NCBI GenBank assembly: GCA_036517475.1
Contig: DATDVZ010000002.1
Span: forward strand, 1 to 45,607
Direction: 5' to 3'
DNA from: Minisyncoccota bacterium
Lineage (GTDB): Bacteria > Patescibacteriota > Minisyncoccia > Phycocordibacterales > Zambryskibacteraceae
DNA: 45,607 bases
Position numbers and translations under genes: made by a program. The notes beneath the pieces are model-generated. The model was not told the DNA's origin, made no database searches, and was given only the letters and a program-made list of their open reading frames with translations. Shown piece after piece: positions 5,101 through 27,344 of the stretch; the first letter of the stretch is position 1; each line of letters begins with the position of its first letter.

Positions 5101-5254
5101 CGACGTCGCTCGGACATTATGAAAAAGATTACTTTCTCATACGTCTCTCGCTCGTCGAAATAAAAAGTCTTTTGCAGTTAAATTACTGAGTAGTAAGAAT
5201 AATTGCTATAATGCGTCTAATTAACTGATAAGTTATTAATTAGAAACTAACAAC

Positions 5255-6061
5255 ATGAATGAAGAAGTGAAAAACAGGGCTTTAAAATTTATACCTTTAT
5301 TAGCGGTTGTACTCTCACTTTTTTTGGTAGTACAAACTCTTAATGCTTTGCGTGATTACGGCAGCGGAGATCTTCCAAAAAATGTAATCACTGTTGAGGG
5401 TAGTGGTGAAGTATTTGCCCCACCCGATATCGCAGAATTTAATTTCTCTGTAAATTCTGAAGGTAAAGATATAAAAGAAGCACAAAGTAAAGTCACCACC
5501 AAAATTGATGCTGCAGTTAAATCTCTTAAAGACGCTGGAGTTCTAGAAAAGGATATAAAGACAACCGATTACAACGCATACCCAAAATATGAGTATTCTC
5601 AAAGTGTTTGCCCAGCAGTCAGTTCCATTTCCGGCGCACCTGTATATTGTCCGCCAGGAAAACAGGTTCTAGTGGGTTATGAAGTTAATCAGACAATTTC
5701 AGTTAAAGTCAGGAAAGTTGATGACGCCGGCAAGCTCTTGGAATTGGTGGCTAATGCTGGAGTTACTAATGTAAGCGGTTTGTCATTTACTATTGATGAT
5801 GAAGAAAAACTTCAGAGACAGGCTCGCCAAATGGCAATAGATGAAGCCAAAGAAAAAGCAAAAGTGCTTGCTAAAGATCTTGGGGTTCGTCTTGTAAGAA
5901 TTGTCAGTTTTAATGAGAGCGGAAATTATCCTACCCCGATTTATTTTGGCCGGGAAGCAGCAATGGGTATGGGAGGAGATGCTCAGGTAAAAGCACCATC
6001 AGTTCCTACGGGCGAGAATAAAATCACTTCAAACGTTACAATTACTTACGAAATTCGATAA
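5255..6061 (+). CDS. SIMPL domain (DUF541) periplasmic protein
   Basis: Signal anchor followed by ITVEGSGEVFAPPDIAEFNFSV, which matches the SIMPL/26-kDa periplasmic immunogenic protein family. Confidence 0.7.
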   Translation: MNEEVKNRALKFIPLLAVVLSLFLVVQTLNALRDYGSGDLPKNVITVEGSGEVFAPPDIAEFNFSVNSEGKDIKEAQSKVTTKIDAAVKSLKDAGVLEKDIKTTDYNAYPKYEYSQSVCPAVSSISGAPVYCPPGKQVLVGYEVNQTISVKVRKVDDAGKLLELVANAGVTNVSGLSFTIDDEEKLQRQARQMAIDEAKEKAKVLAKDLGVRLVRIVSFNESGNYPTPIYFGREAAMGMGGDAQVKAPSVPTGENKITSNVTITYEIR

Positions 6062-6963: not shown

Positions 6964-7002
6964 AGATTCGTGTTATTCGCGATATTCGGATATTCGCGAA
7001 CC

Positions 7003-13912: not shown

Positions 13913-13972
13913 TACGAATGTTACGAATCTGCCGACTGGCAGGCCGAATGATACGAATAAGTTGCAATTTTT

Positions 13973-14359
13973 TTGCAAATACATAACCTATATTTAGATT
14001 GTACACGAGAGGTATATGTGCACTTAAAAATTAAAGGAATTCCATTTCTTGATTTCCCTGTGACAAATGAAACCTTGATACTAGTTAGCAGGGGTATTAA
14101 GAGGCTGTGTATTGATAATGATGTTAAACAGAAAGATTTGGCAGAGCTACTTGGTTACAACTCTGCTTACCTATCTCAATTACTTACTGGATCAAGAGTT
14201 TTTTCATTCAAGCATTTGATAGTAATTGCAGATTTGTTCAGCAAGTCTTTAAGTGAATTGTTTATATATTGTCGTTCACCGCACAGAAGCGACATACATC
14301 TAGAAGGTTTAATAGAGGCAGCTCTGATTTTGGAAGCTTGCCCAGCATTTCAATCGTAA
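13973..14359 (+). CDS. XRE-family helix-turn-helix protein
   Basis: KQKDLAELLGYNSAYLSQLLTGSR is a Cro/C1-type HTH. The true start may lie downstream. Confidence 0.4.
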   Translation: MQIHNLYLDCTREVYVHLKIKGIPFLDFPVTNETLILVSRGIKRLCIDNDVKQKDLAELLGYNSAYLSQLLTGSRVFSFKHLIVIADLFSKSLSELFIYCRSPHRSDIHLEGLIEAALILEACPAFQS

Positions 14360-14453
14360 ACTTGTGGTTTGCGATTTTTTTATTGACAAAATAGGTTGGC
14401 TTAGTAGATTGTTTACGTCCAAGAACCTAACCCCAACAACGGAGTGAAGTCTC

Positions 14454-14603
14454 ATGCTATGGACAATCTTTGTGGTTCTTTTGATTTTTTGGCTATTAGG
14501 GATGGTTTCAGGATATGTTCTTGGAGGATTTATTCACATCCTTCTTTTGGTTGCTCTGGCAGTTGTTCTTATCAGAGTAATTCATGGCAGACGATCTCTT
14601 TGA
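14454..14603 (+). CDS. lmo0937-family small membrane protein (49 aa; absent from ORF track)
   Basis: Manual translation gives MLWTIFVVLLIFWLLGMVSGYVLGGFIHILLLVALAVVLIRVIHGRRSL, the lmo0937-family pattern. GGAG lies 8 nt upstream. Confidence 0.7.
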   Translation: MLWTIFVVLLIFWLLGMVSGYVLGGFIHILLLVALAVVLIRVIHGRRSL

Positions 14604-14657
14604 AATATCGTCGTGCAAAAATCAGCAACTATAAAATTGTTTTTCCGGAGTAGATAA

Positions 14658-14688
14658 CTGCAGACTTGAAGTTTGCGGTTTTTTTTGT
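14658..14688 (+). terminator. intrinsic terminator (8-bp stem incl. 2 G-U, then T8)
   Basis: CTGCAGAC-ttgaa-GTTTGCGG followed by TTTTTTTT. Confidence 0.5.
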
Positions 14689-14747
14689 ATAATAAATTTA
14701 GAAAGACGGATAAGGAGTTCCTCTTTAACTTCCACAAGGAGCTAAAG

Positions 14748-14830
14748 ATGAAAAAAATACTTTCCATTGTTTGCTAATAGCAATTTGGAATCTTGCTTTT
14801 TCAGACGATTCTCCAGGGAATCGTTTTTTA
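14748..14830 (+). promoter_or_regulatory. candidate ileS leader-peptide attenuator (MKKILSIVC mini-ORF + alternative 1:2/2:3/3:4 hairpins + terminator)
   Basis: The 9-codon ORF at 14748-14777 has an SD (GGAGCT) and 2 Ile codons. Segment 1 AGCAA (14779-83) pairs with segment 2 TTGCT (14793-97). GAATC (14788-92) can alternatively pair with GATTC (14807-11). The terminator ACGATTC-tccagg-GAATCGT-TTTTTT spans 14805-14830. Confidence 0.35.
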
Positions 14831-14862
14831 ATTGCAAAAAAAATGCTACGATTATCAAATAA

Positions 14863-17800
14863 ATGGCTAGAAATAGAGTTAACCTACAACCTACAACTTA
14901 CAACAAACAATCCAAGTCTTTACTGGCGCAAAAGGAGGAGGAGATTCTAGATTTCTGGAGACAGAATAAAATTTTCCAAAAATCTCTTGAAAAGCCCTCC
15001 CCAAAGGGAGAATTTGTATTTTATGAGGGTCCTCCAACCGCCAATGGCAAACCGGGGATGCATCACTTTTATCAGCGCGCTTTCAAAGACCTTATTCCGC
15101 GCTTCAAGACAATGCAGGGTTACCATGTCAGAAGAAAAGCGGGCTGGGATACTCACGGTCTTCCAGTTGAGCTTGAGGTTGAAAAAAAACTCGGGATTAA
15201 ATCAAAAAAAGAAATAGAGACTTATGGTATTGCAAAATTTAATGAAGAGTGTAAAAAAAGTGTTTGGACGTATGTTCTAGAGTGGGAGGATTTTTCAAAA
15301 AGGATGGGATTTTGGTTGGACTTTGAAAATCCATATGTAACTTACGAGCCCCAGTATATTGAATCAATATGGAGCATTGTTAAACATATTGATGACAGAG
15401 GACTTTTATATAAAGACTATAAAGTTGTGCCGTGGTGTCCTAGATGCGGCACAGCACTCTCTTCTCATGAACTGGCACAGGGATACGAGGATGTTAAGGA
15501 CGTTTCGGTTTTTGTTAAATTCAAAATAACTAACAACAAACAACCAACAACTAACAACACTTATCTGCTTGCGTGGACAACTACACCTTGGACACTGCCG
15601 GGAAATGTTGCTTTAGCAGTTGGAGAGAACATTGAATATGTAGAAGTAACCAACAACCAACAACTAACAACCAACAATAAAAAAGAACATTTAATATTGG
15701 CAAAAAATAGACTCACTGTTTTTGATAAAGAATACGAGATTGTCAAAGAACTTAAAGGAAGAGATTTAGTTGGTTTGGAGTATGAACCATTGTTTCCATA
15801 TTTGAAAGATAATATTTCCGAGTCACAAAAGGAAAATTTAAAAAATGCTTATAAAGTTTACCCGGCGGATTTTGTTACAACAGAGGAGGGTACCGGTATA
15901 GTTCATACAGCAGTGATGTACGGTCAGGATGATTTTGAATTGGGGACAAAAATTGGCTTACCCAAGCATCACTTAGTTGGGGAAGATGGAAAATTTCTTC
16001 CAAATACAGGCGAAATTTCCGGCAAGTTTGTAAAAGATAAAGAAACCCAAGATTGGATAATAAATGACCTTAAATCAAGAAACTTGTTATTAAAAGAGGA
16101 GCTCTATGAACACTCTTATCCATTCTGTTGGAGATGTAATACGCCTTTAATTTATTACGCAAGGGATTCGTGGTATATAGCCATGTCCAAATTGCGCAAC
16201 AATCTGCTGAAAGAAAATGAAAAAATTAATTGGAATCCGGAATACATTAAAGAAGGCAGGTTCGGTGAATGGTTAAGGGAAGTCAAAGACTGGGCAATCT
16301 CTCGTGAACGTTACTGGGGGACCCCTCTTCCAGTCTGGCAAAATGAAAAGAACGAAAAAATAATTGTTGATTCAATTGAGACACTCAAGAAATATATTCC
16401 AAAATCAGGAAACCGCCACTTTGGAATGCGGCACGGTATCTCTGATCATAATATCTCGTTTACTTGCAGTTCATCAGAAAATTACGCAGATCACGTGACA
16501 GAAAAAGGAATAGGAGAAATTAAAAAGACTGCCCAAATTTTAAAGAGCAAAAATATAACAAAAATTTTTTCCTCTCCTTTTGTCCGTACCAAAGAAACAG
16601 CAGAAATTGTCGCAAAAGAAATCAATTTTCCGGTTGAAAAAATAATTTATGATGACAGAATTCGCGAATACAATTTTGGTGTATTTGATCAGAAATCTCG
16701 TAATTTATATGATGAATGGCGAAAAGAAAACAACAAATTTGACTCAAAACCCGATGGAGGGGAATCTTTCGCTGATGCTAAAAAAAGGGTAGCTGAATTT
16801 TTTTACGACATTGATCATAAACATAAAGATGAAAATATTCTCTTCATTACTCACGGCATTGCATTTGAAGTTCTTCCCTCGATTATTAATGGTTTGTCAG
16901 TAGAAGTTGGCTGGAAGGGTTGGGCACAAAGCGATGTTTTGTATGCAGATTTGAGAGAATATGAGTTTGTCCGACTTCCTCATAATGAAGAATATGAAAT
17001 TGACTTGCATAAACCTTATATTGATGAAATTGTCCTTGTAAAAGATGGTAAAGAATATCAAAGAGTGAAAGAAGTAATGGATGTCTGGTTTGATTCCGGT
17101 TCAATGCCCCTATCTCAGGATCATTATCCCTTCGACTCCTTCGACAATGCTCAGGATAAATCCGCTCAGGGTAAACCTTTTGAAAACACAAAGCTATTAT
17201 ATCCGGCGGATTTTATATGCGAGGGTCTTGATCAAACAAGGGGCTGGTTCTATACACTACATGCGATTGGTAATTTGATGGAAATGGGTCATGCCTATAA
17301 AAACGTTATATGTTTGGGGATACTTTTGGATGAAAAGGGACAAAAGATGTCAAAATCAAAAGGTAATGTCGTTGATCCATGGCAGCAAATGGAAAAATTC
17401 GGGGCTGACCCGCTGCGCTACTGGTTTTATGCTGTTAATCAGCCGGGTGAGTCAAAGGATTTTGATGAAAAATCTATTGATGAAGTCGTAAAGAAAGTTT
17501 TCAATCTTTATTTAAACTCAGTAAAGTTTTATGAGCTTTATGCTGAAAAAAACACCATAAAAATTGGGCGTTCTCACATTCTTGATCGCTGGATTATATC
17601 TTTACTCAATAAACTAATTGAGGAAGTAACGAATGATCTGGAATCGTACAAAGTCTTTGAAGCGGCACGTTCAATTCGAGAATTTATCTCTCAACTCTCC
17701 CAGTGGTATATTCGCCGATCACGTAACCGTTTTAAAGAAGATATCGAAAGAAAGGAAGCGAGCGCGACATTAAGGGAAGTACTTCTTTCACTAGCTGAAA

Positions 17801-18375
17801 TTTTAGCTCCGTTTACGCCGTTTATATCTGAAGATGTTCACCGCCGCCTTAATGGGGAAGGAGAAAGCGTCCACTTGAGAAACTGGCCTGATGTTGGAGA
17901 AATAGATGAAAAAATTATTAATAGTATGGAGAAAACAAGGATGCTCACTTCCTTGGCACTTGAAGCGCGCGCCAAGGCCGGAATTAAAATACGCCAACCT
18001 CTTTTAAAATTAAAAATCAAGGATCAAAAATCAGGATTGCCCAGTGAATTTTTAGAAATAATTAAAGAAGAGGTTAATGTCAAAAATGTTGATTTTGATG
18101 AAACAATACTGGAAGAAATTGAACTTGATACTAAAATAACTGCAGAACTGAAAGAAGAAGGGGATTTAAGGGAAATAATAAGAGCTTTTCAGGAAGCTAG
18201 AAAAGCCAAACTCCTTACCCCTGAGAAGCAAATATCTTCTTCTGTTAATGTTGATGCGAAAACAGCAGAAATAATAGAAAAAAACACCGACGAAATTAAA
18301 AGAAAAGCCAGAATCTCTTTTATTAGCATCAATATCGGCGATGAAGACAGTAAACTTGAAATAAATTTAGAATAG
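14863..18375 (+). CDS. ileS: isoleucine--tRNA ligase (type 2) with inserted histidine-phosphatase-like domain and in-frame heptamer-repeat tracts
   Basis: HIGH-region PPTANGKPGMHHFYQRAF, editing-domain WTTTPWTLP, KMSKSKGN, and a long C-terminal extension. Residues ~515-690 form an extra domain carrying RHG and THG motifs. Confidence 0.95.
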   Translation: MARNRVNLQPTTYNKQSKSLLAQKEEEILDFWRQNKIFQKSLEKPSPKGEFVFYEGPPTANGKPGMHHFYQRAFKDLIPRFKTMQGYHVRRKAGWDTHGLPVELEVEKKLGIKSKKEIETYGIAKFNEECKKSVWTYVLEWEDFSKRMGFWLDFENPYVTYEPQYIESIWSIVKHIDDRGLLYKDYKVVPWCPRCGTALSSHELAQGYEDVKDVSVFVKFKITNNKQPTTNNTYLLAWTTTPWTLPGNVALAVGENIEYVEVTNNQQLTTNNKKEHLILAKNRLTVFDKEYEIVKELKGRDLVGLEYEPLFPYLKDNISESQKENLKNAYKVYPADFVTTEEGTGIVHTAVMYGQDDFELGTKIGLPKHHLVGEDGKFLPNTGEISGKFVKDKETQDWIINDLKSRNLLLKEELYEHSYPFCWRCNTPLIYYARDSWYIAMSKLRNNLLKENEKINWNPEYIKEGRFGEWLREVKDWAISRERYWGTPLPVWQNEKNEKIIVDSIETLKKYIPKSGNRHFGMRHGISDHNISFTCSSSENYADHVTEKGIGEIKKTAQILKSKNITKIFSSPFVRTKETAEIVAKEINFPVEKIIYDDRIREYNFGVFDQKSRNLYDEWRKENNKFDSKPDGGESFADAKKRVAEFFYDIDHKHKDENILFITHGIAFEVLPSIINGLSVEVGWKGWAQSDVLYADLREYEFVRLPHNEEYEIDLHKPYIDEIVLVKDGKEYQRVKEVMDVWFDSGSMPLSQDHYPFDSFDNAQDKSAQGKPFENTKLLYPADFICEGLDQTRGWFYTLHAIGNLMEMGHAYKNVICLGILLDEKGQKMSKSKGNVVDPWQQMEKFGADPLRYWFYAVNQPGESKDFDEKSIDEVVKKVFNLYLNSVKFYELYAEKNTIKIGRSHILDRWIISLLNKLIEEVTNDLESYKVFEAARSIREFISQLSQWYIRRSRNRFKEDIERKEASATLREVLLSLAEILAPFTPFISEDVHRRLNGEGESVHLRNWPDVGEIDEKIINSMEKTRMLTSLALEARAKAGIKIRQPLLKLKIKDQKSGLPSEFLEIIKEEVNVKNVDFDETILEEIELDTKITAELKEEGDLREIIRAFQEARKAKLLTPEKQISSSVNVDAKTAEIIEKNTDEIKRKARISFISINIGDEDSKLEINLE
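14883..14910. repeat. heptamer tandem repeat (CCTACAA)2-CTTACAA-CAAACAA at ileS 5' end
   Basis: Four consecutive 7-mers. The tract is translated as the N-terminal NLQPTTYNKQ. Confidence 0.6.
15528..15560. repeat. heptamer tandem repeat TAACAAC-AAACAAC-CAACAAC-TAACAAC within ileS
   Basis: Translated in-frame as TNNKQPTTNNT, immediately N-terminal to the WTTTPWT editing motif. Confidence 0.65.
15648..15680. repeat. heptamer tandem repeat CAACAAC-CAACAAC-TAACAAC-CAACAAT within ileS
   Basis: Translated in-frame as VTNNQQLTTNNKK, 90 nt downstream of the previous tract. Confidence 0.65.
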
Positions 18376-18968
18376 TGCCGTACAGAATCTATAATACAAA
18401 AGCAGTTATTTTAAAAAGCAGCCCACATGGTGAGGCGGATAAAAACATAATAATGCTAACAGAAGACCTGGGGCTGATAAGAGCACAAGCCAAGGGAGTA
18501 CGTTATGAAAAATCAAAATTAAATTCCAAGCTTCAGGAAATGAACTTATCAGAGGTTGGTTTGGTGCGTGGTAAAAATTCATGGAGGCTGACAAGCGCCA
18601 TTGGAATTCAGAATTACTTCAGATTACTAAGAAACCAAAAATCCAAAGTTCAGGTCTTCTCAAGAGTACTGAATCTTATCCTTCAGCTGATACATGGTGA
18701 GGAAAAAAATTCCCACCTTTTCAATTTGATAGCTGATGCTGGTAATTTTCTCATTAAAAAAAATTTAAGCACCAATGAGATTATGATTTTTGAGCTGATT
18801 CTTGTTTTGAGGGTTCTTGAACAGCTTGGTTATATAAATCAAAGGGGTGAATTGAAAGAACTCACAAATAGTTCTTGGGGGGAGGCGATTGCGATCGGAG
18901 AAAAAAGCAAGCAAAAAATAGTTGCAGGCATAAATAATGCGCTAAAAGAAAGCCACCTTGGGGTATAA
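18375..18968 (+). CDS. recO: DNA repair protein RecO
   Basis: RecO N-terminal OB pattern (KAVILKSSPHGEADKNIIMLTEDLGLIRAQAKGVRYEKSKL). The start overlaps the ileS stop. Confidence 0.55.
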   Translation: MPYRIYNTKAVILKSSPHGEADKNIIMLTEDLGLIRAQAKGVRYEKSKLNSKLQEMNLSEVGLVRGKNSWRLTSAIGIQNYFRLLRNQKSKVQVFSRVLNLILQLIHGEEKNSHLFNLIADAGNFLIKKNLSTNEIMIFELILVLRVLEQLGYINQRGELKELTNSSWGEAIAIGEKSKQKIVAGINNALKESHLGV

Positions 18969-19084
18969 CCCCATGAGATGCAGTTAAAAAAATATGGTGT
19001 ATATTTTTTTAGATAGACGGTTTTAAATAGGCAGTATTGAAGCGGCTCTAGTCTATAGTAGGTAACTATCTCACGGGGTATAAT
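18960..19084. repeat. ~120-bp inverted-repeat-bounded element, copy 1 (TAACCCCATGAGATG ... ATCTCACGGGGTATAAT)
   Basis: The terminal 13-mers at 18968-18980 and 19068-19080 are reverse complements with one mismatch. The right end is fused to the -10 TATAAT box at 19079-19084. The interior resembles copy 2 (ACGGTTTTAA...AGTATTGAA). Confidence 0.45.
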
Positions 19085-19127
19085 AGCTTATGATTTATAG
19101 TTAGAATGATTATTAATACTGCAAAGA

Positions 19128-21035
19128 ATGCCTAAAAATAAACTGGAAAAACTTGAGGAAAGGTTATATTCGAGAAAATTTGAACCTGGTAAAAGTGAGA
19201 GATTTGCGCTCGGCAAGGACGATGCACAAGAGTCAAAATCTTGGGAAGATAAAGAAGGGGTGAGTGATCTTATCAGGACGCATCTTGATGATAGAGATAA
19301 AAAAGGAAAGTTGCTTAAAAAAATTCTGGTCTCTTCAATAATCTTTTTTGCTGTCGCGGTTTTAGTTTCATTTTTTATTTTTTTTGGCGGCAGAAATGCT
19401 GTCTCTTCTAAAAATATAGGTATTTCTGTAAGTGGCCCAAGCACAGTTGCTGGGGGAGAAATTCTCTCTCTTGATGTTACGGTTAGTAATGATAATAATG
19501 TTGCGCTTCGTAATGTGGTTTTAATTGTAGAGTATCCAAATGGCACCAAAGTTGCCCTTGATCTTTCCAAGGAGCTTACCAGAGCGCGAGAGACAATTGA
19601 CAAAATTGATGCGCGAGCAAGACTTACAAAAAATTTCAAGGCAGTGCTTTTCGGCGAGAAAGAGGAGATAAAGCAGATTAAATTCACTCTTGAATACCGT
19701 CTTGAAGGATCAAGTGCACTCTTCAGCAAAGACAAGTTTTTTGAAATCCTTATCAAATCTTCTCCAGTAATACTGGAATTAAATTATCCTAACGAGGTAA
19801 ATTCAGGAAAACCATTTGAGATAATTCTAAGTTTATCTTCAAACAGTTTGGAAACTCTAAAAAATGTTTTATTAACGGCAACATTTCCATTTGGTTTCAG
19901 CTTTTCTGATTCGGAGCCCAGAGCATCTGATGGTAATAATGTCTGGAAAATTGGGGATTTGGAAAGCGGGGAGAAAAAGCTGATAAAGATTCACGGCAGT
20001 ATTATTGGAGAAGATGAAGATGAGAGAACATTCAATTTTTCTGCGGGGATTGAGGGCAGAGAACAAAATGTCATTGAAGCGAACTTCACGACATCAATTG
20101 CTACAATTTTTATTAAAAAACCGTTTATATCTTTATCTGTCACAATAGATGGTAAAAACCCCGAAGACTTCTCTGTCATTCCTGGGCAAAAATCAAAAGT
20201 TAATATTGTCTGGTCCAATAATTTACCCGAAACGGTAAATAACATGAAAATTGAGGCAAAAATTGAGGGAGTTGTGCTTGATCGTTCATCAGTAATTACT
20301 ACAGAGGGTGGGTTTTATAGGTCATTTGACAATACTATTGTCTGGGATAGAGGCAGTGACCCTGATTTTGATTCCGTCTCCTCTGGTGAAAAGGGTGTTG
20401 TCGGATTCTCGTTTGCTCCAATTTCAAATATTTCATCATCTCTGCGCAATCAAAAAATTGTGTTAAATATTAGCGCATCTGGCAATATTTCTTCTCCGAC
20501 TGGTTCCAAACCAGTATCTTCTAGCATTTCTGAAGATATAAAGATATATTCCGCACTTGGTCTTAGCGGTATGGCCGTAAGATCCATTGGTCCATTTGAG
20601 AATATGGGTCCTATACCACCAAAAGCTGACAATGAAACTACTTACACAATTATTTTTTCACTCTCAAGCCCATTCAATGATATAAATTCTGTTGAAGTGA
20701 CAGGTAGCTTACCCTCTTATATTGCTTGGAAAAATCTCACATCACCTTTAAATGAAAATGTAACATATGATGAAAATAGGAGGGTTGTAACTTGGAAAGC
20801 CGGCATTGTACGTGCGGGTTTGGGTAGTGGAAATACAAGGCAAGTCGCTTTTCAGATTTCTCTTACACCCAGTTTAAGTCAAGTAGGTAATCTAGTTAAT
20901 TTGCTGACCGATATTGTAGCAACAGGTTTTGATCAGTTTACAAACCAGAATCAAAGAGTGACAATTTCTTCAATCACTACACGCACTATTTCTGATCCGC
21001 AGTTTAAGGAAGGTGATGATAAGGTGGTGAAATAA
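19128..21035 (+). CDS. membrane-anchored large surface protein with Ig-like/CARDB-type repeats
   Basis: Charged N-terminus and one TM helix (ILVSSIIFFAVAVLVSFFIFF). A ~540-aa extracellular region follows, with repeated beta-rich segments. Confidence 0.55.
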   Translation: MPKNKLEKLEERLYSRKFEPGKSERFALGKDDAQESKSWEDKEGVSDLIRTHLDDRDKKGKLLKKILVSSIIFFAVAVLVSFFIFFGGRNAVSSKNIGISVSGPSTVAGGEILSLDVTVSNDNNVALRNVVLIVEYPNGTKVALDLSKELTRARETIDKIDARARLTKNFKAVLFGEKEEIKQIKFTLEYRLEGSSALFSKDKFFEILIKSSPVILELNYPNEVNSGKPFEIILSLSSNSLETLKNVLLTATFPFGFSFSDSEPRASDGNNVWKIGDLESGEKKLIKIHGSIIGEDEDERTFNFSAGIEGREQNVIEANFTTSIATIFIKKPFISLSVTIDGKNPEDFSVIPGQKSKVNIVWSNNLPETVNNMKIEAKIEGVVLDRSSVITTEGGFYRSFDNTIVWDRGSDPDFDSVSSGEKGVVGFSFAPISNISSSLRNQKIVLNISASGNISSPTGSKPVSSSISEDIKIYSALGLSGMAVRSIGPFENMGPIPPKADNETTYTIIFSLSSPFNDINSVEVTGSLPSYIAWKNLTSPLNENVTYDENRRVVTWKAGIVRAGLGSGNTRQVAFQISLTPSLSQVGNLVNLLTDIVATGFDQFTNQNQRVTISSITTRTISDPQFKEGDDKVVK

Positions 21036-21073
21036 CCAACAACTAACAACTAACAACCAATAACTAACAACTG
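21035..21073. repeat. heptamer tandem repeat (CTAACAA-like x5) in the intergenic region upstream of glyQS
   Basis: The sequence is AACCAACAACTAACAACTAACAACCAATAACTAACAACTGG. Confidence 0.65.
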
Positions 21074-21082
21074 GCCAAATAA

Positions 21083-22405
21083 ATGCAAAAAGAAAACAAC
21101 AAAATGGAGAAAATAGTCAGTCTGTGTAAGCGCCGTGGTTTTGTATTTCCCGGTTCGGAAATCTACGGCGGGCTTTCTGGAATATATGATTACGGACCAC
21201 TTGGTGTAGAACTTCGGCACAATATTAAGCAATATTTTTGGACTAAATTTATTGCAGAGCGTGAGGATGTTTACGGAATGAGCGCCGCGATTCTAATGCC
21301 TGAAAAAGTTTGGCAAGCGAGTGGGCATACAGAGCTTTTCACTGATCCTCTCGTCGAATGCAAAATTTGCCACGCTCGCTTTCGTGCGGACCAGCCGGAA
21401 GTTATTGCAGAGCACGAAATTTCTCACAAAAAGGAAACAATTGGTTGGTCGGAACCAAAAGTATTTAATCTTCTTGTGGAAACCAAACTCGGCGCTTCGG
21501 AAGAAACAGCGATGAAGGTGTATTTGCGCGGAGAGATCACCCAAGGTGTGCATGTGAACTTTAAAAATGTTTTGGATTCTATGCATCCGAAGTTTCCTTT
21601 CGGTATTGGTCAGATCGGCAAGGCATTTAGAAATGAGATAACCCCCCGAGACTTCCTTTTTCGTCAGCGCGAGTTTGAACAAATGGAACTTCAATACTAC
21701 ATAAAACCTGACGAAGCAGAGGGTAAAAAGCAATTTGAATCTTGGAAAGAATTTTCACTCGACTGGTATTATGGACTCGGCTTTAAAAAGAGCAGTTTGC
21801 GTCTTCGCCAGCATGCTCCCGACGAACGGGCACATTATGCTAAAGATGCTTGGGATATTGAATATAATATTCCTGAAATTGGATGGAAAGAAGCGTGGGG
21901 TATACACCACCGTGGTGATTGGGATCTCAAGCGTCATTCAGAGTATTCCGGAGCTGATCTTTCTTATTATGATGAGGAGACGAGAGAGCGCTTTATCCCT
22001 TGGGATATTGAGTGCTCGGGTGGAGTTGATCGGGCAGTATTGTTTGTTCTTCTTGAAGCCTACACTGAGGACACAATGAATGAAGAGCCGCGCTCGTATT
22101 TGAAATTAGCAACTCACCTGGCCCCAATCCGTGTTGCAGTTTTTCCCCTTTTAAAAAACAAACCTGAATTAGTCAAAAAAGCTCGCGAAGTTTATTCAGA
22201 AATAAAAAGACAAATTCCCAGCGCAGTCTTTGATGATAATGGAAATATAGGGAAACGATATAGAAGGCAGGATGAAATAGGTACCCCGCATTGTATAACA
22301 ATTGATTTTGAAACACTTGAAAATGAAACAGTGACTTTACGTGATCGCAATACAGGAAAACAAGAGAGGGTTGACATAAAAAATTTATCTAGTATTTTAC
22401 TCTAA
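21083..22405 (+). CDS. glyQS: glycine--tRNA ligase (alpha2 homodimeric type)
   Basis: MEKIVSLCKRRGFVFPGSEIYGGLSGIYDYGPLG is the canonical GlyRS N-terminus. The start is probably at the second Met (21104). Confidence 0.9.
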   Translation: MQKENNKMEKIVSLCKRRGFVFPGSEIYGGLSGIYDYGPLGVELRHNIKQYFWTKFIAEREDVYGMSAAILMPEKVWQASGHTELFTDPLVECKICHARFRADQPEVIAEHEISHKKETIGWSEPKVFNLLVETKLGASEETAMKVYLRGEITQGVHVNFKNVLDSMHPKFPFGIGQIGKAFRNEITPRDFLFRQREFEQMELQYYIKPDEAEGKKQFESWKEFSLDWYYGLGFKKSSLRLRQHAPDERAHYAKDAWDIEYNIPEIGWKEAWGIHHRGDWDLKRHSEYSGADLSYYDEETRERFIPWDIECSGGVDRAVLFVLLEAYTEDTMNEEPRSYLKLATHLAPIRVAVFPLLKNKPELVKKAREVYSEIKRQIPSAVFDDNGNIGKRYRRQDEIGTPHCITIDFETLENETVTLRDRNTGKQERVDIKNLSSILL

Positions 22406-22435
22406 GTTTTTGTACCCAAACACAGGAGTAAAAAC

Positions 22436-22720
22436 TTGAGAAAAAAAAGCTGGCTTTCTAATCATCTGAGAGACCCCAAAAATCGCCTCGCTTTTGAGCA
22501 AGAGGGGATTGTTGTTGAAGTCATGGAAGAAATTTCCAGGGTTATGGAAGCTAAGAAAATCACCGAGAGAAGATTGGCCAAAATTCTTCATAAATCGCAG
22601 CGGCACATTACCATGTGTTTCTCCGGTGAAAGAGAAGTGAGTCTTCGCGAACTTGCCAAATGGGCATTTGTTCTTGGAAGGAGAGTTAAGATCAAACTTA
22701 TTCCTCTGCGTAAATACTGA
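22436..22720 (+). CDS. small XRE-family HTH protein
   Basis: ITERRLAKILHKSQRHITMCFSGEREVSLRELAKWAFVLG fits a Cro/C1 HTH. The start codon is uncertain (TTG at 22436 or an internal ATG). Confidence 0.45.
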   Translation: MRKKSWLSNHLRDPKNRLAFEQEGIVVEVMEEISRVMEAKKITERRLAKILHKSQRHITMCFSGEREVSLRELAKWAFVLGRRVKIKLIPLRKY

Positions 22721-22726
22721 AAAATC

Positions 22727-22752
22727 GGCTCTCCTAAGGGAGAGCCTTTTAT
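22727..22752 (+). terminator. rho-independent terminator GGCTCTCC-taag-GGAGAGCC-TTTT
   Basis: Perfect 8-bp stem followed by a T-run. Confidence 0.7.
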
Positions 22753-22789
22753 TTGTTCTATTTCTATTTTTTGATAAACTCCTTTTACT

Positions 22790-24058
22790 ATGCGTTTCCA
22801 TAAAAAAACATTTAAAAATGGTCTGCGTTTAATTACAGTTCCGATAACAGGTGCGCCTACGGCCACAGTTATGGTAATGGCGCAGGCGGGCGCAAGTTAT
22901 GAAAATAAAAAAAACGAAGGAATTTCACATTTTCTTGAACATATGGCATTTAAAGGAACACTGCGTCGTCCATCAAGTAAAGAAATCAACTCAGAGTTAG
23001 ATTCAATCGGATCACGTTCAAATGCTTTTACTGGACATGAGTATACTTTCTATTACGCCAAAGCTCATCCCAAACAAGTTGAAAAAATAATTGATGTTTT
23101 GTCGGACATTTATCTCAATTCTACTTTTCCCGAAGCTGAAATTGAAAAAGAAAAAGGGGTAATAGTTGAAGAGATGAATATGGTTGAAGATTCTCCGCAG
23201 CGCCTTGCTCCTTATTTATTTTTAAAGTTGCTATATGGTGATACTCCTGCCGGAAGCAATATTTTAGGTCGAAAAGAAATAGTAAAGGCAATTAAAAGAG
23301 ATGATTTTTTAAGATATAAAAATGATCATTATCTGGCAGAGGGTACTGTTGTAATAGTTTCCGGCTCATTTAATAATAAAAAAATTGAAAAATTAATTGA
23401 AAAATCTTTTGCCAGCATACCTACCATTCCCAAAAAGGGTAAAGTTAGGGTGGCCGAATCGCAAAGCAAACCAAAGATTCTAATAAAAAAGAAAAAAACC
23501 GATCAGGTCCATCTGGTACTAGGTGTGCGTACTTGGGGTGCAAAGGATAAAAGAAACACTACATTGGCGCTTCTTAACACTATTCTTGGTGAAGGAATGA
23601 GCTCTCGTTTATGGCACCGTTTGCGTGAGGATTTGGGAATTTGCTACTACGTTCGTACTGAGGCAGATGAGTATACCGATCATGGTTATTTTGCAATATA
23701 TGCCGGAGTTGATAAAGATAGAGTTACTGAAGCCGTGGGCGCAATACTTGAAGAGTTGAGAAAAATAAAAAGTGAGCTTGTTGATGAAGTCGAACTTAAG
23801 AAAGCCAAAGATTTCCTTTCAGGCACTATGTATCTTGGACTTGAGTCATCCGATGAAATAGGCGCTTTTTATGCAATTCAGGAAGCTATAAGAGGTAAAC
23901 TTAAAACACCACAGCAATTAGAGAAGGAAATTCAAAAGATCAGTTCAAAAGAAATCTTAAGAATTGCAAAAGAAATTTTTCTAAACAAAAAACTTAATCT
24001 GGCAATAGTTGGCGATATCAAAAATCCAGAAAAATTTTCTTCTATTTTAAAAATTTAA
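22790..24058 (+). CDS. M16 family zinc peptidase (pitrilysin/insulinase-like)
   Basis: The inverted zinc motif HFLEHMAFKGT (HxxEH) lies near the N-terminus. Length is 422 aa. Confidence 0.8.
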   Translation: MRFHKKTFKNGLRLITVPITGAPTATVMVMAQAGASYENKKNEGISHFLEHMAFKGTLRRPSSKEINSELDSIGSRSNAFTGHEYTFYYAKAHPKQVEKIIDVLSDIYLNSTFPEAEIEKEKGVIVEEMNMVEDSPQRLAPYLFLKLLYGDTPAGSNILGRKEIVKAIKRDDFLRYKNDHYLAEGTVVIVSGSFNNKKIEKLIEKSFASIPTIPKKGKVRVAESQSKPKILIKKKKTDQVHLVLGVRTWGAKDKRNTTLALLNTILGEGMSSRLWHRLREDLGICYYVRTEADEYTDHGYFAIYAGVDKDRVTEAVGAILEELRKIKSELVDEVELKKAKDFLSGTMYLGLESSDEIGAFYAIQEAIRGKLKTPQQLEKEIQKISSKEILRIAKEIFLNKKLNLAIVGDIKNPEKFSSILKI

Positions 24059-24078
24059 ATTTGTGATATAGTTTTTTT

Positions 24079-25128
24079 ATGAATAATATAAGTATATCTT
24101 CAGGGACAATTGTCAGAGCAATACTTTTTGGTGTTCTTTTTTATTTTCTATTTTTAATAAAGGATGTAATTCTTATATTACTTACTGGTATTGTAATAGC
24201 CTCTGCTATTGAACCAGGCACGCGATGGTTTATCCGCCATAGAATTCCTAGGATTCCTGCAGTACTTGCGATTTATCTTGCCACAGCAGTTATTTTTGTT
24301 TCGGCTTTCTACTTTCTCCTAGTGCCCCTGGTAACTGAAACAGCAAATTTTCTCCAGACTCTTCCTGAATATTCACAGACTCTAAGTCAAAGTCAGAGTT
24401 TTCAGAATGTCACAGAGAATTCCGGCGACTTAATTCAAAACATTACTGAAGGTTTTTCACTGCCTTCAATTGCAAATACAGTGAATGCCGCGTTATCAAA
24501 GATATCTGCGGGTTTTTTCGGCACAGTTGACGTTATCTTCGGAGGTATTGCAAGCTTCTTATTGATAATTGTTCTTTCATTTTACTTAGCTGTACAGGAT
24601 GATGGTGTAGGGAAATTCCTCAAAATGGTAACGCCCGTTAGTCATGAAAAATACGTCGTTGGTCTATGGGAAAGGTCAAAAGAAAAAATCGGGCTTTGGA
24701 TGCAGGGCCAACTCTTACTCGCGATTATTGTAGGAATCATGACTTTTTTGGGTTTGACTATAATTGGTATAAAGGGGGCCTTACTCCTTGCTTTTTTTGC
24801 AGCAATTTTTGAAATCATTCCTTTATTCGGACCATTTCTTGCTGCAGTACCAGCAGTCCTGGTTGCATTTGTTGATGGCGGTTTAACCCTGGCATTAATT
24901 GCTACTGGACTCTATGTTGTTATCCAGCAGTTTGAATCTCAGCTCATCTATCCTTTGGTTGTAAAAAAAGTTATCGGAGTTCCTCCAATAATTTCAATTA
25001 TTGCCATTGTCGTGGGCCTTAAGCTGGGAGGTTTTTTGGGAGTAATTCTTTCAGTGCCCCTCGCAACAGTTCTCTTGGAGGTCTTAAGCGATCTGGAGAA
25101 AAGAAAGAAACTAACAACTAATAACTAA
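24079..25128 (+). CDS. AI-2E family transporter (PerM/UPF0118)
   Basis: Polytopic membrane protein with the AI-2E topology and conserved mid-region. Confidence 0.7.
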   Translation: MNNISISSGTIVRAILFGVLFYFLFLIKDVILILLTGIVIASAIEPGTRWFIRHRIPRIPAVLAIYLATAVIFVSAFYFLLVPLVTETANFLQTLPEYSQTLSQSQSFQNVTENSGDLIQNITEGFSLPSIANTVNAALSKISAGFFGTVDVIFGGIASFLLIIVLSFYLAVQDDGVGKFLKMVTPVSHEKYVVGLWERSKEKIGLWMQGQLLLAIIVGIMTFLGLTIIGIKGALLLAFFAAIFEIIPLFGPFLAAVPAVLVAFVDGGLTLALIATGLYVVIQQFESQLIYPLVVKKVIGVPPIISIIAIVVGLKLGGFLGVILSVPLATVLLEVLSDLEKRKKLTTNN

Positions 25129-25138
25129 CTACGAACCA
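25111..25138. repeat. heptamer tandem repeat CTAACAA-CTAATAA-CTAACTA-CGAACCA spanning the AI-2E gene stop
   Basis: It encodes the C-terminal KLTTNN and extends past the stop codon. Confidence 0.55.
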
Positions 25139-25203: not shown

Positions 25204-26124
25204 ATGAGCGAAGCGGAACTTAGTAACTTACCGACTTACTTTGACGTTCATTCGCATTTAAATTTTCCCGATTACGGGGACGAACTTTCTGAAATCATAA
25301 AAAGAATGAAAGAAGCGGGAGTATGGACTATTTGTATAGGAACTAACTTTAAAGATTCTCAAGTGGCAGTCGAGCTTGCAGAAAAACACGAGGGAATTTT
25401 TGCTTGTGTCGGTATTCACCCCATTAAAGAAGATCTACCCAAGGACTCCCCTTGGGAATTGGAATCTAAGGGGAGTCCTTGGGATTTTAATGAGACGGAA
25501 CTTGAAAAACTCGTAAATCACCCGAAGGTGGTTGCGGTGGGAGAGTGCGGACTTGATTACTTTTCCGCCCCAGGCGGACCCGCCTCTGGCGGAGGTGGTT
25601 TGAGCGAGGGTGAAAAAGACAGGCAGAGGGATCTTTTTAAAAAACAAATTGAGTTTGCACTTAAGCATGATAAACCTCTGATGATCCACGCGCGCTCTGC
25701 CTACGATGAAATAATCGAAATTCTTTTTGAGTATAAAAGAAAAGAGCTCGAGGACTCCCCTTGGGAATTGAAACTTAAGGGGAGTCCTCGAGACCCAGGG
25801 CTTCGAGGCAACATTCATTTTTTCACAGGAAATCTGGAGCAAGCCAAAAAATTTATTGATCTGGGTTTCACTCTTTCATTTGCCGGTCCGATCACTTTTG
25901 CAAGAGATTATGATGAAGTAATTAAAAATATCCCTATAGAGTCGATTCTTTCTGAGACCGATTCACCATTTGTTGCACCTGCTCCATATCGGGGTAAGCG
26001 CAACGAACCCTCCTATGTAATAGAGATTGTAAAAAAACTTGCCGAAATTCGTGAGGAAAACGAGGAAGTATTTCAAAAACAACTTGTCGCAAACGCTCTA
26101 GAGTTATTCCAAATAAAGCCTTAA
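25204..26124 (+). CDS. tatD: TatD family metal-dependent deoxyribonuclease, with three in-frame palindromic insertions
   Basis: FDVHSHLNF, GIHP, VAVGECGLDY, MIHAR and SETDSPF are all present. There are extra in-frame segments, DSPWELESKGSP and DSPWELKLKGSP, and a Gly-rich insert. Confidence 0.85.
   Translation: MSEAELSNLPTYFDVHSHLNFPDYGDELSEIIKRMKEAGVWTICIGTNFKDSQVAVELAEKHEGIFACVGIHPIKEDLPKDSPWELESKGSPWDFNETELEKLVNHPKVVAVGECGLDYFSAPGGPASGGGGLSEGEKDRQRDLFKKQIEFALKHDKPLMIHARSAYDEIIEILFEYKRKELEDSPWELKLKGSPRDPGLRGNIHFFTGNLEQAKKFIDLGFTLSFAGPITFARDYDEVIKNIPIESILSETDSPFVAPAPYRGKRNEPSYVIEIVKKLAEIREENEEVFQKQLVANALELFQIKP
25443..25478. repeat. 36-nt palindromic element copy 1 (GGACTCCCCTT-14nt-AAGGGGAGTCC) inside tatD ORF
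   Basis: The 11-bp arms are perfect reverse complements. The element is in-frame and encodes DSPWELESKGSP. Confidence 0.7.
25752..25787. repeat. 36-nt palindromic element copy 2 inside tatD ORF (flanked by CTCGAG on both sides)
   Basis: Near-identical to copy 1. It encodes DSPWELKLKGSP. The palindrome extends to 14 bp when the CGAG/CTCG flanks are included. Confidence 0.7.
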
Positions 26125-26321: not shown

Positions 26322-26771
26322 ATGTCAGAGGAAAAATTAAATCGTATCTATGAAGTCGGATTTTTAGTCACCCCTTCCATTCCAGAGGAATCTATCAAAC
26401 AGGAGTTTCAAAAGACAAAGGAGAAAATTATTGAAGCTGGAGGATTGATTATATCCGAGGGAAATCCTGAAATGAAATCTCTAGCTTACACTCTTGAGAA
26501 AAAAGTTGAAGGAGTTTTAAGTAAATTTGATCAGGCATATTTGGGGTATATAAGATTTGAACTTAATCCTTCAGATTTGCCCCTTATAAATAAATTTTTG
26601 AATAGCCAAGCAAGCGTCATCCGCTTTATTATTATCGGCGTGGATATAGAAAAGGAGGCCGTAAAAACACACCCTTCAATTAGAGAAAAGAGTCCGCAGA
26701 TATCCGAACCGGCCGCTTTTTCAGAGGAAGAGATTGATAAAAGCATTGAGGAATTGATAAAGGAAAGTTGA
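26322..26771 (+). CDS. rpsF: 30S ribosomal protein S6
   Basis: The S6 fold pattern is present (YEVGFLVTP...LAYTLEKK...GYIRFE). It is the first gene of an rpsF-ssb-rpsR operon. Confidence 0.75.
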   Translation: MSEEKLNRIYEVGFLVTPSIPEESIKQEFQKTKEKIIEAGGLIISEGNPEMKSLAYTLEKKVEGVLSKFDQAYLGYIRFELNPSDLPLINKFLNSQASVIRFIIIGVDIEKEAVKTHPSIREKSPQISEPAAFSEEEIDKSIEELIKES

Positions 26772-26829
26772 TGAAGTTCAATAAGTTTGATAAGTTTGAT
26801 AAGTTGAATAATTAATTTTAATTAATATC

Positions 26830-27270: not shown

Positions 27271-27344
27271 GTAAATCACAGAGCTTTCGCGGTAATTACT
27301 AATTTTTAATTTTAAATTTTGATTTTTTAACTTTAAATTAATAT

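Follow-up and report, generated by a model that had tools for sequence, protein, structure and literature searches.

The 45,607-nucleotide (nt) stretch of Minisyncoccota DNA described here (contig DATDVZ010000002.1; hereafter the window) contains five short tandem arrays of the heptamer CYWACAA, three of which lie in frame within ileS, the gene for isoleucyl-tRNA synthetase (IleRS). These arrays are probably simple repeats that arise from a process specific for a period of 7 nt and are tolerated where sequence constraint is weak, and the copies close to start codons may serve as C/A-rich leaders. The tracts belong to the known class of heptamer simple repeats; what is new is the host from the candidate phyla radiation (CPR), the CYWACAA unit and the forward in-frame copies in an essential aminoacyl-tRNA synthetase (aaRS) gene. 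A literature search on heptanucleotide repeats in CPR found no paper. The source DNA is a scaffold of about 160 kb from a Rifle-aquifer metagenome, and the host is a groundwater member of the Paceibacteria. The gene order in the window is argS – helix-turn-helix (HTH) gene – ileS – recO – DUF11 protein gene – glyQS – M16 peptidase gene – AI-2E transporter gene – tatD.

Five CYWACAA tracts in the window

Direct reading of the sequence, Tandem Repeats Finder and a scan for three consecutive units all find five tandem heptamer tracts (Table 1), in agreement with a preliminary description made from the sequence alone. That description gave 4–5 units per tract, which holds for tracts 1–4 but not for tract 5 with its three units; the units, 3–5 per tract, are imperfect. 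All tracts are on the + strand, and no inverted or antisense CYWACAA copy is present in the 55 kb of the scaffold that were covered, namely the window and about 9 kb of flank (coverage per relative was 10–23 kb). The family was also described as dispersed. Coding and intergenic copies do both occur, but the five tracts are confined to 10.3 kb of the 55 kb, and so the CYWACAA family is locally clustered in the DNA covered.

Tract 1 begins 18 nt 3′ of the sole possible in-frame start of ileS, no other in-frame start being available further 3′, and is followed by the conserved IleRS sequence KS..A..EEEIL.FW. Tracts 2 and 3, which read ITNNKQPTTNN and TNNQQLTTNN, bracket the WTTTPWTLP motif about 90 nt apart, as originally reported. 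The first base of tract 4 follows directly on the TAA stop of the DUF11 gene (21033-21035), and its end is 12 nt before the glyQS ATG (21083). Tract 5 lies at the end of the AI-2E gene, for which it provides five final codons and the stop, 72 nt 5′ of the tatD ATG.

Table 1. Positions of the heptamer tracts and of the two synthetase genes next to or around them (TRF, period-7 array delimited by Tandem Repeats Finder)
Feature	Positions	Strand	TRF	Units and setting
ileS	14863..18375	+		Host of tracts 1-3; 1170-aa class I IleRS with inserted His_Phos_1 domain
Tract 1	14883..14910	+	14881-14910	CCTACAA CCTACAA CTTACAA CAAACAA; ileS codons 7-16 (LQPTTYNKQ)
Tract 2	15530..15557	+	15524-15559	CTAACAA CAAACAA CCAACAA CTAACAA; in frame in ileS (TNNKQPTTNN), loop just before WTTTPW
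Tract 3	15650..15677	+	15648-15677	CCAACAA CCAACAA CTAACAA CCAACAA; in frame in ileS (TNNQQLTTNN), hairpin loop after WTTTPWTLP
Tract 4	21036..21070	+	21034-21072	CCAACAA CTAACAA CTAACAA CCAATAA CTAACAA; DUF11-glyQS spacer
glyQS-type GlyRS gene	21083..22405	+		Immediately 3′ of tract 4
Tract 5	25111..25131	+	25109-25129	CTAACAA CTAATAA CTAACTA; AI-2E tail LTTNN and TAA stop (25126-25128)
(TAATTTT)n period-7 tract	27292..27329	+		SSB-S18 spacer; end 15 nt before S18 ATG

Shuffle controls and the period spectrum

When three consecutive units of C[CT][AT]ACAA are required and up to 2 mismatches are allowed, five tracts are found on the + strand of the window and none on the − strand, whereas 60 dinucleotide-preserving shuffles give none on either strand. 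The single unit CYAACAA is not over-represented, with 19 copies against 17 ± 4 expected. All 19 copies are on the + strand and 12 of them are in tandem tracts, indicating that the signal lies in the tandem arrangement and the strand. The probability of chance or of a compositional artefact of A/C-rich sequence is negligible. Such an origin agrees with the expected frequency of the unit alone, but it is ruled out by the shuffle controls, which yield no tandem tract at all, and by the confinement of the enrichment to period 7 and the recurrence of the tracts at orthologous sites of relatives.

The period spectrum, in which a tract is counted at 80% or more self-match at the lag and triplet-block shuffles serve as the control, was taken over a pooled set of 112 kb comprising the window and four syntenic loci from relatives (L125, L127, L128 and L129). 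This set contains 18 period-7 tracts against 0.07 expected, while periods 5, 6 and 8–15 give 0–3 tracts and period 4 gives 10 against 4.9 expected. The window alone shows the same period-7 picture at a second threshold. The units of the period-7 tracts in the window, flank and relatives are CYWACAA, NNACGAA, AAAACAT, TAATTTT, AAAATTA, CTACTNT and GAAATTA, and the occurrence of several unrelated units at one period argues for a period-specific mutational process rather than for one binding motif. In agreement with this, the (TAATTTT)n tract before the S18 gene indicates that the 7-nt periodicity is independent of any one unit sequence, and an (AAAATTA)n tract lies in the left flank (L132:5238-5273). 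The association with aaRS genes noted in the preliminary description is probably coincidental.

Between genes, period-7 tracts usually occupy short spacers and begin at a stop codon or immediately behind it. Two other close relatives, L130 (closest IleRS) and L131, have short ileS loops and no period-7 tract in 24 kb together, where about 4 would be expected at the rate of the tract-bearing loci. Therefore, the period-7 propensity looks genome-specific.

The ileS tracts in orthologous genes

In a database of 5.8 billion proteins, no IleRS comes closer to that of the window than 61% identity. The best 120 hits are all IleRS of the Paceibacteria type with the inserted His_Phos_1 domain. This insertion occupies 16426-16917 in the window (ileS residues 522-685) and is clade-wide in Paceibacteria-type IleRS among the best 120 homologs.

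The three ileS tracts recur at orthologous sites in relatives with 55–60% identical IleRS. An alignment of 60 orthologs has shown that both internal tract sites are indel hot spots, with short loops in most sequences. Heptamer tracts occupy loop 2, the site of tract 3, in five sequences (the window, P0003, P0005, P0007 and P0055), where the peptide reads V(T/I/A)NNQQ(P/S/L)TT(D/N), and three sequences carry the loop 1 and N-terminal tracts. Tract 1 corresponds to (NNNACAA)5 in L127 and to a degenerate tract in L125, and tract 3 has orthologs in L125, L127, L128 and L129 with the peptide TNNQQPTTDK. The ileS tracts are thus lineage-specific expansions of variable loops, which was one of the outcomes that the preliminary description had asked an ortholog alignment to distinguish.

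The units themselves differ between genomes in a register of 7 nt. At loop 1, the site of tract 2, L125 and L127 read ATAACGA ATGACGA AAAACGA AAAACGA, so that G stands at unit position 6 in four consecutive units and hence at codon positions 3, 1, 2 and 3, where the matching bases of the window are T, A, C and T. At loop 2, L125 has a perfect (TCAACAA)3 and L128 has (CCAACAA)2 CCAACCA; three of the four differences between them are the same C-to-T change at 7-nt spacing, a pattern for which a combinatorial estimate from placement alone gives about 0.02. In the region of the N-terminal tract, L125 and L127 share about 88% identity, yet one unit there differs at 5 of 7 bases (CCGACAA versus TTGGCAG), and the two differ at 9 of 30 positions in loop 2. 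Units of the window resemble their orthologous counterparts in the others no more than they resemble non-orthologous units. Since genome-specific unit variants recur every 7 nt and fall on all three codon positions, the periodicity is maintained in the DNA and not in the protein. The early proposal of a DNA- or RNA-level repeat, as opposed to ordinary protein low complexity, is borne out by this and by the intergenic copies, the relatives keeping the 7-nt periodicity while the peptide changes. The pattern indicates that the ileS tracts evolve in concert, with unit turnover by slippage or conversion under length and frame constraint. The 100% identity of L125 and L127 over loop 1 was considered as a sign of nucleotide-level constraint and rejected, because 5.6% of the 36-nt windows of this gene pair are also identical.

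The valyl-tRNA synthetases (ValRS) of two Flavobacteriaceae present a parallel to the IleRS case. An orthologous in-frame heptamer tract (L108:3322-3342 and L118:3265-3285, both on the − strand) encodes TNN(L/Q)QLTT just before DTWFSSWLWP, and the units are genome-specific, CTAACAA CTTACAA CTAACAA in one and CCAACAA CCAACAA CTAACAA in the other.

Positions of the arrays in genes and proteins

Compared with Thermus thermophilus IleRS (1ILE), loop 1 is length-equivalent and unrelated in sequence, and loop 2 is an 8-residue insertion. An AlphaFold model of the window IleRS has a mean predicted local distance difference test (pLDDT) score of 84. Residues 1-15, which include tract 1, have a pLDDT below 50. 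Tract 2 lies in a coil (223-231) flanked by strands 208-222 and 232-239, where residues 227-230 have a pLDDT below 50, and tract 3 lies in a hairpin coil (265-274), the 261-270 block having a mean pLDDT of 67. The coding ileS tracts are thereby predicted to fall in disordered or low-confidence regions and in variable loops. The AI-2E protein has a conserved end, L(S/N)D(L/Y)E(K/E)RK, followed by unrelated tails in L127 and L129, and tract 5 lies in the tail. Arrays are found in spacers that begin immediately behind a stop codon, at the ends of proteins (the ileS N-terminus and the tail of AI-2E) and in two IleRS surface loops, showing that they sit only where the sequence is weakly constrained.

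Only frame-preserving, stop-free versions are present in the coding tracts. The CTAACAA variant has TAA in one of its three frames, and by inspection it occurs inside ileS only in permissive frames. This variant is dominant outside genes and is the source of the AI-2E stop.

Start-proximal copies

A cross-phylum scan for three CYWACAA units with one genome per species yielded at least 120 loci, with 105 tracts analysable. Filamentous cyanobacteria and Bacteroidota dominate, with some CPR (Yanofskybacteria, Saccharibacteria and Paceibacterota), and the arrays among the matches listed include those of Calothrix, Stigonema, Tolypothrix and others. Among the same matches, 24 of 105 tracts are forward and end within 15 nt 5′ of the ATG of an open reading frame (ORF) of at least 80 aa, whereas only 4 of 105 do so in reverse (Fisher p = 6e-5). 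Tract 4 fits this forward start-proximal pattern, and tracts 2, 3 and 5 do not. The binding-site array or RNA-level role put forward in the preliminary description is partly plausible, on the basis of the cross-phylum orientation bias, and for the start-proximal copies only. In a Rifle Yanofskybacteria genome (L068:3682-3745), a CYTACAA tract is directly followed by (TTGGTCA)n, which we take to be the unit of the cyanobacterial short tandemly repeated repetitive (STRR) family STRR2. A single CTAACAA unit in the window (5247-5253) stands 1 nt before the ATG of a SIMPL-domain gene (5255-6061) that has no Shine–Dalgarno (SD) motif.

No SD motif is found between tract 4 and the glyQS ATG, and most genes of the window are without one. 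The DUF11-glyQS spacer has no terminator-like site, and the only promoter-like match near tract 4, at 20937-20965, lies within the DUF11 coding sequence. The tracts are predicted to be unpaired in RNA folds, with z-scores near 0, except for a hairpin of forward and inverted copies in L129. L125 and L128 lack tract 4 and have DUF11-glyQS spacers of 6 and 16 nt. In the corresponding spacer of L129 (L129:16872-16953), a forward A/C-rich heptamer tract is followed by an inverted (TTGTKAG)n tract; together they are predicted to form a long hairpin (−24 kcal/mol, z = −1.9), whose end is 12 nt from the glyQS ATG on its 5′ side. By inspection of the conserved 3′ tail of 16S rRNA, a pairing of the unit with the anti-SD sequence was rejected.

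An extended −10-like sequence of the form TGnTAnnAT (TGCTACGAT, 14844-14852) precedes the ileS ATG of the window by about 10 nt, and −10-like sequences occupy the same position in six relatives (L125, L127, L128, L129, L130 and L131). A −10-like motif so near the ATG suggests that the ileS mRNA may be leaderless or near-leaderless; tract 1 would then stand where a downstream CA enhancer is expected. Further upstream, a mini-ORF (MKKILSIVC, 14749-14778) preceded by AAGGAG is followed by a terminator-like hairpin (14803-14826). It is possible that this region constitutes an Ile-codon leader-peptide attenuator, a promoter for a leaderless mRNA, or both. The long HTH-ileS spacer also contains a small ORF (14455-14603), too short for the 80-aa ORF list, for a hydrophobic protein of about 49 aa (MLWTIFVVLLIFWLLG...), followed by another terminator-like hairpin (14656-14680). 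A search of Rfam gave no family at the gathering threshold in the whole window, and the sole hit in 14300-15000 was at the level of chance. The window contains no tRNA that a search could detect.

Alternative explanations

Protein-level selection for T/N/Q/P-rich hydrophilic linkers in IleRS and the AI-2E transporter, with the DNA periodicity as a by-product of codon bias, would account for the recognisable conservation of TNNQQPTT(D/N) at loop 2 in five lineages and for the surface exposure of the ileS tract loops in the AlphaFold model. However, CYWACAA units are also intergenic (tract 4 and the bases of tract 5 that lie 3′ of the stop), the 7-nt-spaced substitutions over all codon positions alter the peptide (ITNDEKRKTNEQ versus ITNNKQPTTNNT), and most orthologs, the closest included, have short loops without such a peptide. 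The intergenic copies and the codon-position pattern largely refute this explanation, which we regard as very unlikely. Slipped-strand phase or length variation, another role suggested at the outset, would make the tracts contingency loci, in which frequent changes of unit number switch or adjust expression or the length of the protein. Short tandem units whose length is not a multiple of three are a classic substrate of phase variation, and heptanucleotide repeats drive hmw1A variation in Haemophilus (PMC8262952). However, tract lengths are identical in the five assemblies compared (the window, L001, L002, L003 and L133; assemblies, not reads), which come from several samples and include a strain, L002, that is 0.7% diverged around an identical tract 5. 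The tracts are thus stable within the sampled population and show no phase-switch action. They are moreover short (3–5 units) and imperfect, their lengths are nearly conserved in relatives with 55–60% identical IleRS, and for the three inside ileS, an essential single-copy aaRS gene, the gain or loss of one unit is a frameshift. A long perfect tract that switches a non-essential surface or restriction-modification gene, the hallmark of such loci, is not what is seen in ileS, the glyQS spacer and the AI-2E tail, and so this role is extremely doubtful.

The arrays might instead be cis-acting elements for a sequence-specific factor that reads 7-nt registers, such as an RNA-binding protein (S1 or a cold-shock protein), an antisense small RNA from an inverted tract or a DNA-binding protein, or they might be spread by a templated or mobile process; the unit shared among sites and phyla would then reflect recognition or transfer and not chance. 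In favour of this, CYWACAA occurs at five sites on one strand with 19 of 19 units on +, orthologous tracts retain the ACAA core every 7 nt, CCGACAA is common to two L127 tracts, distant phyla have CYWACAA units with a strong orientation bias to start codons among the matches listed, and the inverted copy of L129 could pair with forward copies. Horizontal transfer and binding by S1, Csp or CsrA have also been proposed for the TAACTGA repeats (MacGregor 2015, PMC4679880). However, period-7 tracts with quite different units exist in the same genomes, loop 1 of L125 and L127 has drifted to ACGA cores at an orthologous site, and the 55 kb of scaffold covered contain no inverted or antisense copy. 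The arrays are not seen to be accompanied by target duplications in the flanks, by terminal repeats or by associated genes, and the internal ileS copies have no obvious regulatory logic. Recognition or transfer is therefore unlikely, though it retains some weight. A bolder version holds that CYWACAA arrays are functional cis-elements of low-SD lineages (CPR, Bacteroidota and cyanobacteria). A conserved factor, whether the ribosome with S1 or a protein of the cold-shock type, would read them in a register of 7 nt, and they would spread, or be templated anew, from site to site. The copies in ileS and in the Flavobacteriaceae ValRS genes would then be retained not as filler but for modulating co-translational events or aaRS mRNA handling. 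This version appears quite improbable.

Proposed origin of the arrays

The more probable explanation is that the arrays are heptamer simple repeats, and their history may be pictured as follows. A process specific for 7-nt units would seed and re-homogenise short arrays by replication slippage and unit-to-unit conversion, and the arrays would persist in weakly constrained sequence such as spacers, protein termini and the IleRS loops. The internal ileS copies would most likely be neutral loop filler. Tracts 1 and 4 may add a benefit at the RNA level, because such unstructured, G-free and ACA-rich sequence could favour SD-less or leaderless initiation.

Several observations weigh against this explanation. 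Pure local slippage leaves unexplained why CYWACAA is found at five sites and, among the matches listed, in cyanobacteria, Bacteroidota and other CPR, and so selection for stop-free, G-free units or some spread must be added. A single-unit slip inside ileS would be lethal, and homogenisation there would need length-neutral conversion. In a rough neighbour-joining tree of 120 IleRS sequences, which is shallow or saturated, the tract-bearing sequences are not monophyletic, and the closest relative (P0002) is without tracts, so that the tracts must have been lost many times or gained repeatedly at the same sites. A promoter-like site for tatD lies 3′ of tract 5, and this tract, being upstream of it, probably has no leader role. 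Statements about the genome as a whole are extrapolations from 55 kb and from 10–23 kb per relative.

These results extend the unexplained class of bacterial heptamer repeats to the CPR. In-frame tracts at orthologous synthetase sites provide a natural experiment that separates DNA-level concerted evolution from protein-level selection, and the cross-phylum co-orientation of CYWACAA arrays and their abutment on start codons give a testable lead on SD-less initiation. For annotation, a T/N/Q/P-rich insertion in a loop or an odd C-terminal tail of a CPR protein can be a by-product of repeats.

Other repeats and inserted elements

The spacers of the window also contain tandem repeats of other kinds. 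A 9-nt (AAGTTTGAT)n array lies between the S6 and SSB genes (26765-26811), another 9-nt array (ATTCGCGAT) is at 6966-6999, and ACGAAT-containing repeats follow the argS stop (13913-13965). In L125, two copies of a segment of about 150 nt stand at a distance of 2.6 kb (L125:1-150 and L125:2610-2760); the segment contains (AAAACAT)4, an (NNNCGAA)4 tract and a terminator hairpin, and it resembles a copied, repeat-bearing 3′ gene-end module.

L002 contains a 218-nt insertion (L002:11709-11926) with 12-nt terminal inverted repeats (CCCGTTAGAGAT / ATCTCTAACGGG). The insertion site corresponds to 22790-22796 of the window, at the start of the M16 peptidase gene, where the window has TGCGT and L001 has a scaffold gap. 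This is a polymorphic insertion like a miniature inverted-repeat transposable element.

The tatD gene (25204-26124) contains two in-frame copies of a 46-nt perfect hairpin element (25438-25483 and 25747-25792), each with 16-nt arms that are 100% complementary and a 14-nt loop, which encode DSPWELESKGSPWD and DSPWELKLKGSPRD. The window TatD is about 40 aa longer than the TatD proteins of L129 and L131, and the inserts resemble palindromic mini-elements of the Rickettsia palindromic element (RPE) kind. The inverted-repeat hairpin that is the hallmark of RPE-like elements is absent from the CYWACAA tracts, which are G-free direct repeats predicted to be unpaired.

Comparison with known heptamer systems

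The 7-bp repeats of hmw1A in Haemophilus influenzae (PMC8262952) are likewise tandem short units, heptamers included, in or next to genes. The tracts described here differ from such contingency loci in showing no length polymorphism, in their imperfect units and housekeeping hosts, and in keeping their lengths across deep divergence.

Heptameric simple sequence repeats (SSRs) are over-represented in bacteria, and slippage linked to the DNA polymerase footprint has been hypothesised as the reason (PMC4692102, citing Mrazek 2007); STRR sequences have been described in Calothrix (PCC 7601). The cyanobacterial STRR sequences and long heptameric SSRs resemble the present tracts in being tandem heptamers at many loci, with period 7 over-represented relative to neighbouring periods. 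In contrast, they are often much longer and mainly intergenic, whereas the tracts here have 3–5 units, and three form in-frame codons of an essential gene at positions that are orthologous between relatives.

Direct repeats of TAACTGA are described from Beggiatoaceae, cyanobacteria and Bacteroidetes in 2–6 forward copies just 5′ of starts that lack a ribosome-binding site (RBS); they overlap upstream stop codons and supply stops in all frames, and S1, Csp and CsrA have been proposed as readers and horizontal spread has been suspected (MacGregor 2015, PMC4679880). The two families share the 7-nt unit, sets of 2–6 copies often interrupted by related 7-mers and, for the most part, an intergenic forward position just 5′ of RBS-less starts, here represented by tract 4. 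They also share the overlap or abutment with the stop of the upstream ORF, tract 5 supplying the AI-2E TAA and tract 4 adjoining the DUF11 TAA. Stops in all three forward frames are, by inspection, a property of (CTAACAA)3 here but not of CCAACAA. Predicted unstructured RNA, a patchy phylogenetic distribution and copies within ORFs at protein peripheries are further common features. On the other hand, the unit here is CYWACAA, and only ACAACTG(A/G) junctions resemble TAACTGA. CCAACAA and CAAACAA are stop-free and allow forward in-frame copies, whereas the reported TAACTGA copies within ORFs are reverse. The host here belongs to the CPR (Paceibacteria), and the arrays form a local cluster and not hundreds of sets.

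ACA and CA-rich elements enhance translation in enterobacteria (PMC3879156), and CA repeats 3′ of the start codon enhance both leadered and leaderless translation (Martin-Farmer and Janssen 1999, cited in PMC9031893). These C/A-rich enhancers were defined experimentally in enterobacteria and are not 7-periodic, and the internal ileS tracts and tract 5 do not fit them. The likeness lies in the ACA present in each unit, in the position of tract 4 just 5′ of an SD-less start and in that of tract 1 just 3′ of a start behind a conserved extended −10-like motif, so that tracts 1 and 4 alone would qualify as candidate elements of this kind.

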